Shown here: positions 33,908 to 39,120 of the stretch, piece by piece | How positions within the stretch are numbered: position 1 is the stretch's first letter | How the letters are laid out: every line of letters begins with the position of its first letter | Sequence record: MN850609.1 | Strand: one strand, 5' to 3' | Source of the DNA: Escherichia phage dhaeg | DNA: 64,000 bases | Position numbers and translations under genes: made by a program | Notes under the pieces: generated by a model | Told to the model about the DNA's origin: nothing | Seen by the model: only the letters and a program-made list of their open reading frames with translations | The model's database searches: none

Positions 33908-33937
33908 GTTTACAACCCTCAGAGGACAGGGTATAAT
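33908..33937 (+). promoter_or_regulatory. early promoter with stem-loop (GTTTAC-18-TATAAT)
   Basis: GAGGACA (33922-33928) / TGTCCTC (33937-33943) bracket the -10. Confidence 0.65.
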
Positions 33938-34622: not shown

Positions 34623-35177
34623 ATGAGTTTATATGATAACCTTATATCAAATATTGATTGGTTTAAAAATAGTGGTCTTTCCCATGAAACCAATTCAGTT
34701 CTTTATAGAATTCGCCAAGACCTAGGCTATTCAAACGATTTCTTAAGCAGAACATCTAGCCGTGGCGATACTACCAAATTACCTTTTATTTTTGCTTTAG
34801 CTGAAGACCTTTCTTTTGAAGATGCTTTGGAAATTATTGACGTAAATCTGGCTATTCAACGAGTGGAATTCGCTGGACTACGTTATTCAGTATATTCTTT
34901 AAATGAGAGCAATGATTGCGTGCTTCTTAATATGGCAGACGATGATTACCATTTAGTATGCTATGTGGCTTTAGAAAATGGTGATGTATTTGGAATGGTC
35001 GACCGCCGCCCAACTTATACTGATATTAAAAATTATGATAAAGATGAGCTTCTTGATTTGGCGGCTGAGTACACATTAGAGAGTCGTAAACGGAAACGTA
35101 AGCTTAATCGTTTTATTGCTGAATGTCGTGAATATGCTAAAGGGGTTCAAAATGCGAACGTTATATCTGCCAAGTAA
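34623..35177 (+). CDS. hypothetical protein
   Basis: 184 aa, GGAGGAGAGGAG SD. Confidence 0.6.
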   Translation: MSLYDNLISNIDWFKNSGLSHETNSVLYRIRQDLGYSNDFLSRTSSRGDTTKLPFIFALAEDLSFEDALEIIDVNLAIQRVEFAGLRYSVYSLNESNDCVLLNMADDDYHLVCYVALENGDVFGMVDRRPTYTDIKNYDKDELLDLAAEYTLESRKRKRKLNRFIAECREYAKGVQNANVISAK

Positions 35178-35511
35178 ACCAGAAAAATTTGTATACGCAG
35201 ACAAGATTGATAAAGACCTTATGCCTCCATTTGGGGCTCTGTCCATGTGCATCGTTGGAATTATAATGATGGTTGTTTGTGGAGATATGAATATCATCAG
35301 TGTTGGAGTCGCCTGGACGCTAGTAATTACAGCTCCTTTTATTACAGTCCTGTGTATGGTATTGATAAATGTGTGGCATCAAAATCATATGAATAAAGGA
35401 TATCGTGGGCGAGTTAAAGAGTGGGAACAAAAATGTGTTTCCCTACAAGAAGAGCACAAAATTAAATGTGCCGAAGAATTTATTAAGGAGGTTCGTAATG
35501 GAACGGCCTAA
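35152..35511 (+). CDS. 2-TM membrane protein ending ...EEFIKEVRNGTA
   Basis: 119 aa from the ATG after AAGGGG; hydrophobic helices ALSMCIVGIIMMVVCG and VAWTLVITAPFITVLCMVLI. Confidence 0.55.
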   Translation: MRTLYLPSKPEKFVYADKIDKDLMPPFGALSMCIVGIIMMVVCGDMNIISVGVAWTLVITAPFITVLCMVLINVWHQNHMNKGYRGRVKEWEQKCVSLQEEHKIKCAEEFIKEVRNGTA

Positions 35512-35851
35512 TCTTGCATCACATGTTTATCAATTGGCTGAATATGATATTGGTGCCAATTTATTATTAGGGATTGCCACCGGTATGCTTGGCGGCTTGG
35601 TTGGTCTGGTAATGACCACGGTTATGGCTGCAATCGAGGGAGTCATGCCCATTGAGATGGGTTTCTATATGATAATCGCTCCGGCTGTCGTGGCTTATTT
35701 TATCCCTCTAGTGTATGATATTTGCCATACAAATGCTTTGAATGCTCCCATCCGTAAGAGATATGCTTTAGAGATGGCTAATTATAATGAGTATGTAAAA
35801 CAAACCAAACGTAATGACCTTGAAACCTTTATTAAGGAATGTAAATCATGA
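35498..35851 (+). CDS. 2-TM membrane protein ending ...LETFIKECKS
   Basis: 117 aa from the ATG after AAGGAGG; helices LLLGIATGMLGGLVGLVMTTVMAAI and FYMIIAPAVVAYFIPLV. Confidence 0.6.
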   Translation: MERPNLASHVYQLAEYDIGANLLLGIATGMLGGLVGLVMTTVMAAIEGVMPIEMGFYMIIAPAVVAYFIPLVYDICHTNALNAPIRKRYALEMANYNEYVKQTKRNDLETFIKECKS

Positions 35852-36138
35852 ATAAAATTGAAATTGAAATCCCTGAATACAACGACGAGAAATCTGCAGA
35901 AAAAGCTATCTATGCTCTTCTGAATAAAGTAGATATCATCGAATCCAAATGTGAAGCTATTGCCGATAAGTACGGTATTCAATTCGGAACAGGTGATTAT
36001 GGCTCAGGACGTACATACTATCCGGTCGGTTATGAATGCTCCCAGTGGTTTAAAGATGAAATTGAAAACAATGGCGGTGAAGTTGAAAATGGCGTCGTTA
36101 CAGTTGGTGCCTGGGTCTCCTCTTCGGCAATGTGCTAA
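35848..36138 (+). CDS. W-x-SSS-x-x-C family small protein, paralog 1
   Basis: 96 aa, ATGA-coupled to the upstream gene; ends GAWVSSSAMC-stop. Confidence 0.7.
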   Translation: MNKIEIEIPEYNDEKSAEKAIYALLNKVDIIESKCEAIADKYGIQFGTGDYGSGRTYYPVGYECSQWFKDEIENNGGEVENGVVTVGAWVSSSAMC

Positions 36139-36147
36139 GGAAAAGCT

Positions 36148-36429
36148 ATGATGAATGATAATCATAACCATCCAGAGCTTCTGGCCGCAGTAAAAGAAAT
36201 TCATGAAGCTATTCGTCGTGCCGAGGAAATTGCAGATAAATATGAGACTCATTTTAATATATACCCTGCTCGCGGTATGGGCGGTGACTATTATTCTCCT
36301 GGCGCCTTGAAAGCTGACCTTGCCCATTGGGAAGAAGATGGTCATCCTGAATGGGCTATTGTTAATACTCATGACTATACAACTGACCTCGCAACTGGCG
36401 GTTGGGTGTCCTCTTCTTCTGAATGTTAA
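36148..36429 (+). CDS. W-x-SSS-x-x-C family small protein, paralog 2
   Basis: 93 aa; ends GGWVSSSSEC-stop; TAAGGA SD fused to the upstream stop. Confidence 0.7.
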   Translation: MMNDNHNHPELLAAVKEIHEAIRRAEEIADKYETHFNIYPARGMGGDYYSPGALKADLAHWEEDGHPEWAIVNTHDYTTDLATGGWVSSSSEC

Positions 36430-36438
36430 GGAAATATT

Positions 36439-36636
36439 ATGTCTCGTGAATTAGATTGTGCAATCCGAACTGCCGCGGCGGCAATTGAAAACGTTATTCA
36501 AATTTGTAAAGAAGAACGCGAAGAAGCTGATATCTATATTGATGGTGCTCGTGACTTAGAACGACATATAACGCTTTATAACGGTTGTATTACTATTAGT
36601 GGTACCTCTTGGGTGTCCTCTTCTTACGAATGCTAA
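36439..36636 (+). CDS. W-x-SSS-x-x-C family small protein, paralog 3
   Basis: 65 aa; ends TSWVSSSYEC-stop. Confidence 0.7.
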   Translation: MSRELDCAIRTAAAAIENVIQICKEEREEADIYIDGARDLERHITLYNGCITISGTSWVSSSYEC

Positions 36637-36645
36637 GGTAATAAA

Positions 36646-36858
36646 ATGACTATTGATGAAATTGAAAAACAAATCCGTGAATTAGTACGTAAAGGCCAGT
36701 CCGTGGCTGATGAAACAGGTGAAGAATTTTATGTTTCTGGACGCGGTCAATACATTTCTCCAAAGAATCCAGAATATGATGATTACGAATGGGTCCGTGA
36801 TGACTACGGTATCCCAGAAGGTGAAGGTTTCTGGTTTAGCTCCTCTATGTCTTGCTAA
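36646..36858 (+). CDS. W-x-SSS-x-x-C family small protein, paralog 4
   Basis: 70 aa; ends GFWFSSSMSC-stop. Confidence 0.7.
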   Translation: MTIDEIEKQIRELVRKGQSVADETGEEFYVSGRGQYISPKNPEYDDYEWVRDDYGIPEGEGFWFSSSMSC

Positions 36859-36868
36859 GGAATAAAAA

Positions 36869-37093
36869 ATGTCTAATATTAATGAATTGGAAAAAGCAGC
36901 TCTTGAACTGGCTGCGCTGTATAAGAAAGTAAAAGATATGGCTTCTGCCCAGGATTTTGGTGTTGAGCTAGATGATTACGACGGTGAAGTTCGTCTTGAA
37001 GATTGGCTGAATAGCTCTTGTTATGGTGAAGAAGCTGGTCGTACCTTCGTTGCTCGCTCCGATGGTAAAATCTGGTACCCGAGCTCATGCTAA
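36869..37093 (+). CDS. W-x-SSS-x-x-C family small protein, paralog 5 (shortened motif)
   Basis: 74 aa; ends KIWYPSSC-stop and has an internal DWLNSSC. Confidence 0.65.
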   Translation: MSNINELEKAALELAALYKKVKDMASAQDFGVELDDYDGEVRLEDWLNSSCYGEEAGRTFVARSDGKIWYPSSC

Positions 37094-37314
37094 AATTAAA
37101 GAAAAGATACATTCGTAAAATAAATGGTCTTCGCGATTATGCCAAAGGTTGGCCGTTAAGTATTATTATGGCTGATAGACACCCACGTTATAATACCGAG
37201 TTGACCTATTATAAAAAGTATGATTCATATTGTCGGTCTAAAGCCGGTCGTTTAGATGGTTCTTATGAAGAATACTTTGGTAAAAAACCTACTCGTATTT
37301 CGTTAGGAAAATAA
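37087..37314 (+). CDS. small basic protein
   Basis: 75 aa, K/R/Y-rich, 7-nt overlap with the upstream gene. Confidence 0.5.
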   Translation: MLKLKKRYIRKINGLRDYAKGWPLSIIMADRHPRYNTELTYYKKYDSYCRSKAGRLDGSYEEYFGKKPTRISLGK

Positions 37315-37344
37315 TTTAGCCACACGGATGTGGTAGGAGGACTT

Positions 37345-37674
37345 ATGCACAAAGATTCAGTATTCAAATATCTTTTGAAAACAGATAAAGAATTCTATAT
37401 GAATGGGCAAGCTTTCTTGTTCGTCCGTGGTAAACGTGAGATGTTTTATAAATGCGACCTCTCAATGCACCATCATATGTATCATACCCACGGCGAGCCT
37501 ATACTAGGGTTCTCTGGTGACGAGACTAGACACATAGCTATGTACTATGACCATTTTAAGCTCAATGATTGTGGTGACAACGCTTTGGTCTGGAACCCAT
37601 CTTGGAGACGTTGGGATACAGTAGACAGCGATAAATTATTTTTAGAATATTGCAGAAGTGATGTACAACTCTAA
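37345..37674 (+). CDS. hypothetical His-rich protein
   Basis: 109 aa from the ATG after AGGAGG; HHHMYHTHGEP cluster. Confidence 0.55.
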   Translation: MHKDSVFKYLLKTDKEFYMNGQAFLFVRGKREMFYKCDLSMHHHMYHTHGEPILGFSGDETRHIAMYYDHFKLNDCGDNALVWNPSWRRWDTVDSDKLFLEYCRSDVQL

Positions 37675-37690
37675 AAACTTGTGTTACTAT
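37662..37690 (+). promoter_or_regulatory. degenerate early promoter cassette (TGTACA-17-TACTAT)
   Basis: Resembles the 39134-39161 promoter; leader ACACAAACATGAGGGGAACATTATG resembles the 60288 leader. Confidence 0.45.
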
Positions 37691-37718
37691 TACCTTACAC
37701 AAACATGAGGGGAACATT

Positions 37719-37958
37719 ATGTGGTATTATTCTCCACTGTCTGATAAGTCTGATGAGCCGGTACGCATTAGTCGTGCCAAGTTTAAAAAGATTTATGGCT
37801 TTGCCTATAAGAAGTCTGATTACGGTGTTCGTTTTGAAGATGCCCACTGTATCAACGACCCTTATGCAGAAGAAATCTCTAATGAGATAATTCCTATCAT
37901 TAAGAATAATTCTGATGATATGTGGGAATTGCATAACGATTACGTTGCTGAAATTTAA
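37719..37958 (+). CDS. hypothetical protein
   Basis: 79 aa, GAGGGG SD. Confidence 0.55.
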   Translation: MWYYSPLSDKSDEPVRISRAKFKKIYGFAYKKSDYGVRFEDAHCINDPYAEEISNEIIPIIKNNSDDMWELHNDYVAEI

Positions 37959-37979
37959 GTTTACTCTGAGGAAAATATT

Positions 37980-38147
37980 ATGTATAATGTTCTTATTGTT
38001 TTTGTTACTCACCCACAAGGTGGCGTAAGGCAGAATACTTCCCAAGTGGTCCAATTTTCTTCACTAGAGGCTGCTAATCTAGCCGCAACGCGTATTGAAG
38101 CAAAAAAATCTGAACTGGGTAAATATGAAGTAACTCGTCTTTATTAA
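37980..38147 (+). CDS. small hypothetical protein (below the ORF-track cut-off)
   Basis: 55 aa MYNVLIVFVTHPQGG...; preceded by the recurrent TIR TGAGGAAAATATTATG. Confidence 0.5.
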   Translation: MYNVLIVFVTHPQGGVRQNTSQVVQFSSLEAANLAATRIEAKKSELGKYEVTRLY

Positions 38148-38160
38148 TGAGGAAAATATT

Positions 38161-39120
38161 ATGATGCTAGTTATTGGTTCTCGTGCACTGCACCACGCTG
38201 GTCTGATTGAAAGTAAGTATATCGAAAATTCTGATTGGGATTTTATTGCCGACCAGGGGTCATGGAATAATTTTAAAGCACAGATGTTTGGCGCCCATGT
38301 ACACGTAGACAACCCTGACGTCCAGGCTTTTAAATGCATGCACAACGGTAAAGAAACCTATTTTGAAGCTTATATCGTCCGCGCCTTGACTAACGTACGT
38401 GAAATTACCGGCGAACTCCAAGATGAGGATTTCACCTCAAGCTACCGCCTTCTGAATTATGCTAAAACACATATTAAGAAAGATCGGATGACGGGTTTCT
38501 ATTGGGCCACGCCTGATATCTGTCTGGCCATCAAAATGAGCCATCGTTATTTGAAGAACAACCCTTTCTTTTTGAAGACGATGTCCCACATCAAATACCT
38601 TCGTAATAAAGGTGTAACCTTGAATGAAGAGCTCCAAGAAATCATGCTGCAACGTCAGAAAGAAACGTTGAGCTATTCTCATCCTAAATTAGATGTAAAC
38701 AAATCATCGTTCTTTAATGATACCATCTATACATTAGACCACGACTCTATTCATGAAGCTGTGGCATTAGCCGGACGCCCAGCGTATACCTTTTATATGA
38801 AAGATGGTTCTGAAGTCATGACCTCTCGTGAGAAGTTTGAAGCTTTGCCTGAAGCTATTAAACTGGCAGGGGTTTATGAAGAAGCATGTGTACTTGCTCT
38901 AGAGCGTTCGCAGGTTCCTAATGACTTTAATATCCCAGCAGCCACAAGTTTCTATATGGCTCTTGAGAAAGTGTGCACCTCAATCACTTCAGGTTGGTTC
39001 CGTGAGTATGCCTGGGAAAACTACCAAGCTGTAGTGAATATGTATAGGACCCTAGGTGAAAGTGACTACATCAACCGGTTTAAGCGTAATCAACATTTAA
39101 TTCGTCCTTTCGAAAAATAA
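38161..39120 (+). CDS. hypothetical protein with a possible minimal nucleotidyltransferase-fold N-terminus
   Basis: 319 aa; VIGSRAL-x17-SDWDFI fits a loose hG[GS]...D.D NTase pattern; helical C-terminal two-thirds. Confidence 0.6.
   Translation: MMLVIGSRALHHAGLIESKYIENSDWDFIADQGSWNNFKAQMFGAHVHVDNPDVQAFKCMHNGKETYFEAYIVRALTNVREITGELQDEDFTSSYRLLNYAKTHIKKDRMTGFYWATPDICLAIKMSHRYLKNNPFFLKTMSHIKYLRNKGVTLNEELQEIMLQRQKETLSYSHPKLDVNKSSFFNDTIYTLDHDSIHEAVALAGRPAYTFYMKDGSEVMTSREKFEALPEAIKLAGVYEEACVLALERSQVPNDFNIPAATSFYMALEKVCTSITSGWFREYAWENYQAVVNMYRTLGESDYINRFKRNQHLIRPFEK

Follow-up and report, generated by a model that had tools for sequence, protein, structure and literature searches.

Why should a phage keep, side by side, five small genes whose products share little beyond the way in which they end? 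The question is raised by a 64,000-nucleotide (nt) stretch of Escherichia phage dhaeg (sequence record MN850609.1; this whole stretch is referred to here as the window), in which five consecutive open reading frames (ORFs) at 35848-37093 each stop directly after a Cys that closes a tail of the general form W-x-S-S-S-x-x-Cys. Comparison with other phages indicates that this array belongs to a conserved module that is specific to viruses and has two components, the second being the gene at 38161-39120. The pairing points to a new system in large lytic phages, made up of an enzyme and its partners. The original prediction, made from the letters of the window alone, had found no modifying enzyme in it; a candidate does lie there, about 1 kb downstream of the array, and it is co-inherited with the small genes across phage lineages. 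The components of the module in the window are:

35848-36138, plus strand: small Cys-terminal paralogue 1, 96 amino acids (aa), tail GAWVSSSAMC, motif codons at 36112-36135
36148-36429, plus strand: small Cys-terminal paralogue 2, 93 aa, tail GGWVSSSSEC, motif at 36403-36426
36439-36636, plus strand: small Cys-terminal paralogue 3, 65 aa, tail TSWVSSSYEC, motif at 36610-36633; reduced, without the YGMGG loop
36646-36858, plus strand: small Cys-terminal paralogue 4, 70 aa, tail GFWFSSSMSC, motif at 36832-36855, first Ser codon AGC
36869-37093, plus strand: small Cys-terminal paralogue 5, 74 aa, tail KIWYPSSC, two motif units
38161-39120, plus strand: partner enzyme, 319 aa, N-terminal DUF7277 (nucleotidyltransferase fold) and C-terminal DUF7275 (helical, rich in His, Asp and Glu)

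The link between the two components has been established from both sides. When loci were collected through the enzyme (80 viral loci, enzymes 40-96% identical), 70 of the 80 were found by hidden Markov model (HMM) to hold one to six genes of the small family, every one of them on the strand of the enzyme and almost all no farther than ~2 kb upstream; with a looser motif, divergent copies were seen in all but one of the remaining loci. The 3 kb upstream of the enzyme on the same strand contain 195 of the 219 motif-bearing ORFs in these loci, as against 973 of all 10,487 ORFs. After the enzymes were collapsed at 80% identity or less, 64 lineages were left, and 62 of them have small genes no more than 4 kb upstream on the same strand, the other two having divergent or opposite-strand copies. 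The number of copies per lineage is one in 21, two in 20, three in 11, four in 3, five in 6 and six in 1. The distance between small gene and enzyme varies between -7 and 1,621 nt, with values of just 3-60 nt in many lineages; in the window it is 1,067 nt and is taken up by four lineage-specific ORFs. The reciprocal search, anchored on the small family with the YGMGGTY sub-alignment as query, yielded 37 new loci. The enzyme lies 0-1.5 kb downstream in 35 of these, which are all 35 of the informative ones, since in the other two the contig stops 94-207 nt past the small genes. Likewise, on each of two jumbo-phage contigs (378 and 396 kb) a distant member of the family lies directly upstream of a 313-aa DUF7277+DUF7275 protein. 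When all neighbours were clustered, no third conserved family was present in more than 12 of the 64 lineages. Taken together, co-inheritance at enzyme identities as low as 40-45%, with the same strand and order and with gaps often of 3-60 nt, argues for a functional link between the two components.

The linkage is not symmetrical, however. One locus (L030) has an intact enzyme and a replaced small-gene region. The most distant homologues of the enzyme, which are found in Streptomyces and Gordonia phages and in roseophage DSS3_VP1, are shorter, are 26-33% identical, and have unrelated small genes upstream with no Cys-terminal protein. Thus, the enzyme occurs without the family, whereas the family has never been seen without the enzyme. 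Gene order also varies in places: in Stenotrophomonas phage YB07 a family member lies downstream of the enzyme, and two metagenomic phage loci (L080, 8506-11367, and L117, 413-3421) carry six members each, five upstream of the enzyme and one downstream, with unusually divergent tails such as GGWMASASSC and DSTGWQPSAGIC.

The five ORFs of the window are themselves well supported. Their positions, lengths and tails, including the internal DWLNSSC of the fifth, proved to be as originally predicted, as did the junctions of the form TG[CT]-TAA-GG[AT]...ATG, in which each stop codon overlaps the ribosome-binding site of the next gene, and the ATGA overlap of the first small gene with the two-transmembrane (2-TM) gene upstream. 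The window contains 625 stop-to-stop segments that are 40 aa or longer; Cys is the last residue of 20 of them, and only these five have W.[SP]SS...C at the end. Relative to their Dhakavirus and Gaprivervirus orthologues, the ratio of nonsynonymous to synonymous substitution rates (dN/dS) is 0.0-0.31 overall and mostly below 0.1 (paralogue 1, 0.05-0.16; paralogue 2, 0.06-0.31; paralogue 3, 0.0-0.08; paralogue 4, 0.09; paralogue 5, 0.04-0.11), and so the five are genuine coding genes under purifying selection. Paralogues 1, 2 and 4 are mutually homologous (BLASTP E = 5e-5 to 5e-7) and match the family HMM (E = 5e-21, 2e-21 and 6e-14, respectively). Together with paralogue 5 they also match PHROG 899 (E = 3e-23, 1e-18, 1e-14 and 4e-10 for paralogues 1, 2, 4 and 5), always in the C-terminal part of that profile, while paralogue 3 matches PHROG 4882 instead; both PHROGs are listed as function unknown. 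The relatedness of paralogues 3 and 5 is detectable through the tail only, or weakly through the body: the alignment of paralogue 3 with the family profile covers its last 16 residues (probability 93%), and the profile-profile alignment of paralogue 5 extends over 51 columns (probability 75%). Judged from these alignments, paralogues 3 and 5 are best described as reduced or divergent members. The two motif units of paralogue 5 are an internal WLNSSC (37004-37021) and the terminal WYPSSC (37073-37090).

An exhaustive profile search (E <= 1e-3) enlarged the family to 298 clusters at 50% identity. Nearly all members are 70-120 aa long (median 84 aa), and the profile match reaches the last residue. 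The consensus runs from an N-terminal helix through AExIADExGxxFxF, YGMGGTYYP and an acidic linker to G-G-W-x-[SAP]-S-S-x-x-C-COOH, so that the body features noticed in the window, (I/V)AD..G..F and G.G..Y..P, are real and family-wide. Positions conserved throughout are A39, Y51, G52, G54, Y57, W89, S92, S93 and C96; none of them is an Arg or a His. The proposal that the tail is the defining constrained feature is borne out: Cys is the last residue in 254 of 269 members, and among these 254, Trp is at -7 in 251, Ser at -4 in 253 and Ser at -3 in 251. A single Cys is present in 154 of the 269. In 17 members, as in paralogue 5, the W-x-S-S-x-C unit occurs more than once, in two or three copies (a further example of such a tail is WESSSEGWESSSEGWVSSSSQC). 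One additional residue follows the Cys in 9 of the 269; a subclade (P0044, P0055, P0056, P0073, P0108, P0178, P0180, P0182) ends in W-x-S-S-T-x-x-C plus one residue (N, S or R), indicating that the Cys is not strictly terminal everywhere and that the third Ser is there replaced by Thr. The proteins are very acidic (median pI 4.4, net charge -8). An AlphaFold2 model of paralogue 1 (predicted local distance difference test score, pLDDT, 94) has a long helix at residues 14-42 and a small sheet; the Trp is in the last strand of this sheet (88-91), after which come a turn (92-95) and Cys96. The best Foldseek match of this model in the PDB has E = 1.5 and offers no usable neighbour, and searches of Pfam, NCBIfam, PADLOC and PDB sequences with the family gave generic helix matches and nothing else. 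The array does belong to a real and unrecognised paralogue family, as had been proposed. The paralogues are not diversifying, however, as had also been proposed. Distinct subtypes (GAWVSSSxMC, GGWVSSSxEC, ..W.SSSY.C, GFWFxSSMSC and a short DG.IW..SSC, to which paralogue 5 belongs) recur across genera, indicating that the paralogues are old, and they are under purifying selection. In two loci (L059, 8058-8576, and L068, 8334-8801, both plus strand) there are longer family-like proteins of 155-172 aa, in which an unrelated N-terminal domain of ~100 aa precedes the C-terminal helix and a ...NS(D/N)W(A/D)SS(R/T)C tail; the length of the PHROG 899 profile, 221 positions, may be due to proteins of this type.

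Is it the peptide or the DNA beneath it that is conserved? Genes 2 and 3 share the 16-nt block TGGGTGTCCTCTTCTT (at 36403 and 36610), and from this it had been suggested that the junction is either selected or homogenised, and that it serves as a site for recombination or cassette shuffling. The identity is present in this genome, and at all four junctions the stop codon overlaps the next Shine-Dalgarno sequence, as might be expected if the junction served for shuffling or, as an RNA element, for translational coupling, with the peptide motif only a by-product. However, relatives have TCC-TCC-TCT or GTA-TCA-TCC at this site of gene 3, so that the identity is peculiar to this genome and the idea of a selected or homogenised junction falls. 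In addition, the motif codons of orthologues and paralogues vary synonymously (GTG/GTA/GTC/ATC, TCC/TCA/AGC, TCG/TCA/TCT and TGC/TGT). Because this variation includes TCN/AGC switches at Ser, the constraint acts on the protein and not on the DNA. It effectively refutes homogenisation of the junction at the DNA level, and together with the relatives that lack the 16-nt identity it speaks against cassette shuffling. Moreover, hundreds of distant members keep the motif although their junctions are unrelated, it is also kept in internal copies, and no promoter, terminator or Rfam element was found inside the array. A DNA- or RNA-level origin of the motif is thus extremely improbable.

The partner is recognisable as an enzyme from several features. 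The ORF at 38161-39120 matches DUF7277 and then DUF7275 over the full length of both models (E = 1.5e-27 and 2.4e-78; PF23942, 96.5 bits, and PF23940, 262.8 bits, with a cut-off of 27 for each). In 120 homologues, the signature of the DNA polymerase beta (Pol-beta) superfamily of nucleotidyltransferases (NTases) is almost perfectly kept: G6, D25 and D27 are present in 120/120 and S7 in 119/120, and position 69 is Glu in 113/120 and Asp in 7/120. The AlphaFold2 model (pLDDT 91) finds its best Foldseek matches in the MenT1 toxin, MenT2, MenT4 and other Pol-beta-superfamily NTases. It has the signature hG[GS]...Dx[DE] and the third carboxylate of the DUF1814/AbiEii/MenT proteins, and the similarity to their bi-lobed NTase fold holds. 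On this modelling, the N-terminal domain is apparently an active-looking Pol-beta-type NTase of the structural class that includes MenT/AbiEii and the antibiotic NTases. Nevertheless, Pfam returned only DUF7275 and DUF7277 at E <= 0.1, with no AbiEii/DUF1814 match; PADLOC, AbiE models included, gave no match at E <= 1; and PDB sequences gave none that was significant. The enzyme is therefore MenT-like in structure, yet not a sequence member of the MenT family. (A match of its profile to an RNase L/HEPN-like protein, at E = 0.098, was not significant and was set aside.)

Further near-invariant residues of the enzyme are K125, H128, R129, H194-D195, H198, E240, E241, E248, R249, K270 and R281. 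The set H128...H194-D195...H198...E240/E241 on the DUF7275 side is kept across homologues and may form a second, HD-like site. The C-terminal motifs of DUF1814/MenT proteins are motif III, with a Lys like that of CCA-adding enzymes, and motif IV, with a family-specific Asp (PMC7450476); K125-x-x-H128-R129 and D193/D195 are conserved in the phage enzyme and are candidates for the counterparts of K189 and D211 of MenT3. The Cys residues are not invariant (C243 in 86/120 homologues, C272 in 115/120), and the idea of a Zn-Cys site, whether LanC-like or a zinc clasp, is weakened by the figure for C243. The protein is mildly acidic (pI ~6.3) and, with a dN/dS of 0.03-0.07, is far better conserved than its small partners. 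Phages that carry it infect hosts including Escherichia, Acinetobacter, Aeromonas, Pseudomonas, Vibrio, Enterobacter and Klebsiella, whereas among the genomes of 185,579 cellular species it was found in five contigs of metagenome-assembled genomes, which are probably phage. One depositor has annotated it as a 'putative nucleotidyltransferase'. In the literature searched there was no mention of DUF7275 or DUF7277, and nothing relevant on C-terminal-Cys phage proteins, on a phage NTase with a small protein, or in accessory-gene screens. In 37 of the 64 lineages (for example L004, 6754-7017, minus strand) the enzyme gene contains an antisense ORF of ~100 aa; as a candidate third conserved family it was rejected, being best explained as the shadow of a highly conserved sense frame and not as a gene.

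What might the enzyme do with the small proteins? Our preferred reading, which is held tentatively, is that they are dedicated clients, that is, substrates whose Ser/Cys tail the enzyme nucleotidylylates. It is favoured because the tail is a near-invariant, sometimes tandem, acceptor-like unit, because many old paralogues (up to six) are maintained for a single enzyme, and because of the asymmetry described above. The much stronger conservation of the enzyme than of its partners also fits. We infer a physical interaction between enzyme and small proteins, with the tail as the acceptor, and any downstream role likewise. The small proteins are very acidic and, by the model, folded, with a long helix and a small beta-sheet, and their end turn presents two invariant Ser hydroxyls and the terminal Cys. 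The enzyme would recognise the common core and tail and would transfer a nucleotide monophosphate to the tail, most probably onto a Ser hydroxyl, and the divergent bodies would then carry this common modification to different jobs early in infection. The earlier suggestion that the tail is a handle for modification remains the best reading of it.

Several known systems offer comparisons. ANT(2'') and LnuA modify sugar hydroxyls. As antibiotic NTases, ANT(2'')-Ia and LnuA act on small molecules, and they differ from the phage enzyme in having neither a dedicated protein partner nor DUF7275. In GlnD/PII, an NTase plus HD enzyme reversibly uridylylates a small protein. The phage module resembles this arrangement in that an NTase is followed by a possible HD-type domain and the presumed target is small and folded, with a Gly-rich, Tyr-containing loop, but it has no sequence match or significant structural match to GlnD/PII. 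A direct precedent is provided by the type VII toxin-antitoxin system HEPN/MNT (HepT/MntA), in which an NTase-fold protein is encoded beside a small partner: MntA nucleotidylylates (AMPylates) the adjacent HepT (PMC7641770, PMC11586414). However, the phage partner is not a HEPN protein, since it has no Rx4-6H motif, Pfam match or conserved Arg or His, and the phage enzyme is much larger than a minimal MNT. In addition, the known acceptor in HepT is Tyr, whereas the candidates here are the position-locked Ser, Ser and Cys or, alternatively, the conserved Tyr of the YGMGG loop.

A bolder form of the preferred reading, which is somewhat unlikely as a whole, posits an undescribed phage protein-modification system. 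Here the NTase, with the HD-like site possibly acting as eraser or lyase, would modify the W-x-S-S-S-x-x-Cys of small acidic effectors, and Ser nucleotidylylation would conceivably be followed by elimination and by a thioether to Cys, altering the early effectors. An analogy is offered by the arrays of ribosomally synthesised and post-translationally modified peptides (RiPPs), in which precursors accompany one conserved modifying enzyme, as with lanthipeptide/AviCys-type peptides that end in Cys. As in such arrays, one highly conserved enzyme is preceded by several small genes of divergent sequence. The distances from Ser to Cys in the rings of lanthionine and AviCys (i+3 or i+4) are similar to those in S-S-x-x-C-COOH, and the motif unit can be repeated. 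On the other hand, the phage tail has no fixed distance from Ser to Cys (the paralogue 5 subtype has S-S-C), and structure prediction makes the small proteins well folded, not leader-core peptides. Pfam scans of the array-adjacent genes of the window and of ten recurrent neighbours elsewhere revealed no enzyme of the LanB, LanM, LanKC, LanC or LanD type, and no RiPP protease or exporter is conserved near the module.

A number of points weigh against the small proteins being clients. The closest structural relatives, MenT1/2/4, act on the 3' ends of tRNA, and their small upstream partners are inhibitors (PMC10435456). The distant homologues evidently work without the family, which consequently is not the only or the ancestral substrate. 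RNA-repair genes near about one third of lineages and tRNA genes in 15 of 60 hint at an RNA substrate. The invariant Trp, Gly-Gly and Ser could, to judge from the model, be partly structural, serving in core packing, the hairpin turn or a helix N-cap. Finally, the array and the enzyme of the window are separated by the gap noted above, with a promoter-like site in it.

Much of this can also be read in terms of MenAT or AbiE, in which case the enzyme would be an RNA- or tRNA-directed NTase used for host shut-off or RNA-end repair, and the small acidic proteins would be antitoxin-like stoichiometric inhibitors or regulators, whose tail may plug the active site or mimic an acidic RNA 3' end. This reading is fairly unlikely, yet much speaks for it. 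The tRNA-NTase toxins MenT1, MenT2 and MenT4 are the best fold matches, and MenT1 is blocked at its active sites by its antitoxin, a helical protein of 68 aa whose gene lies directly upstream (PMC7450476, PMC10435456), so that the gene order is as in the phages. The partners are very acidic, the distant homologues have a different small gene adjoining or overlapping upstream, as in antitoxin swapping, and tRNA or RNA-repair genes are close by in a minority of lineages. MenAT1 (M. tuberculosis Rv0078A/B) and AbiE (S. agalactiae AbiEii/AbiEi) are also two-gene systems with the small protein upstream of a Pol-beta-superfamily NTase, and a long helix is found in the small partner in both cases. 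Nevertheless, a single toxin has no need of up to six anciently diverged inhibitors, each under purifying selection; the occurrence of enzyme without family, and never of family without enzyme, is the opposite of what is expected of toxin and antidote; and a position-locked W/S/S/C that can be repeated in tandem is unusual for an inhibitor. The mild acidity of the enzyme and its failure to match DUF1814/AbiEii in Pfam, or anything in PADLOC, also argue against this reading. The phage enzyme has an extra DUF7275 of ~200 aa with its own invariant His, Asp and Glu residues, and its partners, one to six per enzyme, are unrelated to MenA1-4 or AbiEi, having a beta-sheet and the invariant C-terminal W-x-S-S-S-x-x-C. 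Moreover, the module is found in lytic phages, and cellular genomes are essentially devoid of it.

It is improbable that the small proteins are instead adaptors, non-catalytic subunits that dock through the tail and its Cys (at a shared metal site, for example), each paralogue steering the enzyme to its own target or compartment. Near-obligate linkage without a third partner, tail variants that are specific to a paralogue and kept across genera, and small proteins predicted to be well folded and not peptide-like would all suit such a role, but the Cys residues of the enzyme are not invariant, which makes an inter-subunit Cys-metal clasp unlikely, the commonest lineages (21/64) have a single copy, and there is no evidence for different targets. 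Even less probable is the proposal that the small proteins are independent early effectors, perhaps against host defence, with a tail directed at a host factor (as a C-terminal Cys mimic or as a handle for metal, redox or disulfide chemistry), the enzyme being unrelated. The array does lie in a hyperplastic early region, downstream of a strong promoter match (see below), and its products are small and acidic with a copy number that varies from one to six; however, co-inheritance with the enzyme at 40-45% identity, in the same strand and order and with gaps of 3-60 nt, is very hard to explain in this way.

The module thus resembles the NTase-plus-small-partner systems (MenAT, HEPN/MNT) in kind, but in sequence and in its partner it is not a member of either. 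The partner family is new, the enzyme has an extra conserved domain, and the module is confined to viruses. Both components are 'hypothetical' in every record or library checked, despite the presence of the enzyme in 733 of 50,697 phage genomes and the existence of ~300 family clusters, and the carriers of the enzyme include coliphages used in therapy and in standard collections. As a near-obligate pair in which a Ser-Ser...Cys tail is locked in position, the module poses a well-defined question for biochemistry. Possible outcomes are a new post-translational modification of proteins made by phages, a phage-borne version of MenT/AbiE toxin-antitoxin logic put to viral use, or a new RNA-end-modifying activity with protein regulators. 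Since the tandem array is part of a larger unit and not a free-standing 'effector cassette', the design of deletion and complementation experiments is altered.

RNA-related genes lie near the module in a minority of lineages. Among the 64 lineages, a T4-Pnk-like kinase-phosphatase lies within 10 kb in 8, a metallophosphoesterase in 14 and an RNA ligase in 3, and an RNA ligase adjoins the distant enzyme homologues of Limpid and DSS3_VP1. The same types (T4-Pnk-like kinase-phosphatase, calcineurin-like metallophosphoesterase, RNA ligase/Rnl2) recur a few kb or less from the module in unrelated phage lineages; examples are at L047 1854-2780, L043 5585-6322, L004 3967-4614, L128 2064-2723 and L130 1265-2810. 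These neighbours are suggestive of RNA-end biology, though this is no property of the module. The tRNA genes within 10 kb were seen in 15 of the 60 lineage representatives scanned, mostly enterobacterial T-evens that share synteny, and tRNA linkage was rejected as a feature of the module for this reason. In one Mosigvirus-like tRNA cluster upstream of the module (L014, 4381-4474), ARAGORN calls a 94-nt tRNA with the anticodon TTA (ochre-suppressor type), and at the edge of a metagenomic locus (L107, 13-589) it makes a permuted tmRNA-like call over two tRNA genes that is probably a false positive.

The window phage is, by nucleotide identity (96% over this region to Escherichia phages dhabil and CLB_P2, 92-94% to JS98, JS10 and IME08), a Dhakavirus, a JS98-like relative of the T-even phages. 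Its array is placed in the variable region between the tRNA genes and the lysozyme gene e, with an e.6 homologue and two 2-TM genes (e.4-like) on the 5' side and e.2, nudE and e on the 3' side; the array genes are annotated as hypothetical in every relative. The other genes nearest to the module are:

35116-35511, plus strand: 2-TM membrane protein 1, e.4-like, PHROG 2604
35498-35851, plus strand: 2-TM membrane protein 2, PHROG 2330, whose profile also weakly matches 2-TM protein 1
37087-38147, plus strand: four lineage-specific ORFs (75, 114, 79 and 55 aa) between the array and the enzyme gene

The two 2-TM genes are paralogous and overlap by 14 nt, the second being the one that is ATGA-coupled to the first small gene; both are lineage-specific and are not conserved with the module in other lineages. 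The four intervening ORFs match PHROGs 7065, 9796, 3723 and 20278, all of them listed as function unknown, and are outside the conserved module. Two sigma-70-like promoter matches lie on the plus strand, one at 33909-33937 (TTTACA-17-TATAAT, 11/12), upstream of the operon that contains the array, and the other at 37960-37988 (TTTACT-17-TATAAT, 10/12), directly before the 55-aa ORF and the enzyme gene. Consequently, array and enzyme may be carried on separate or overlapping transcripts in this phage.

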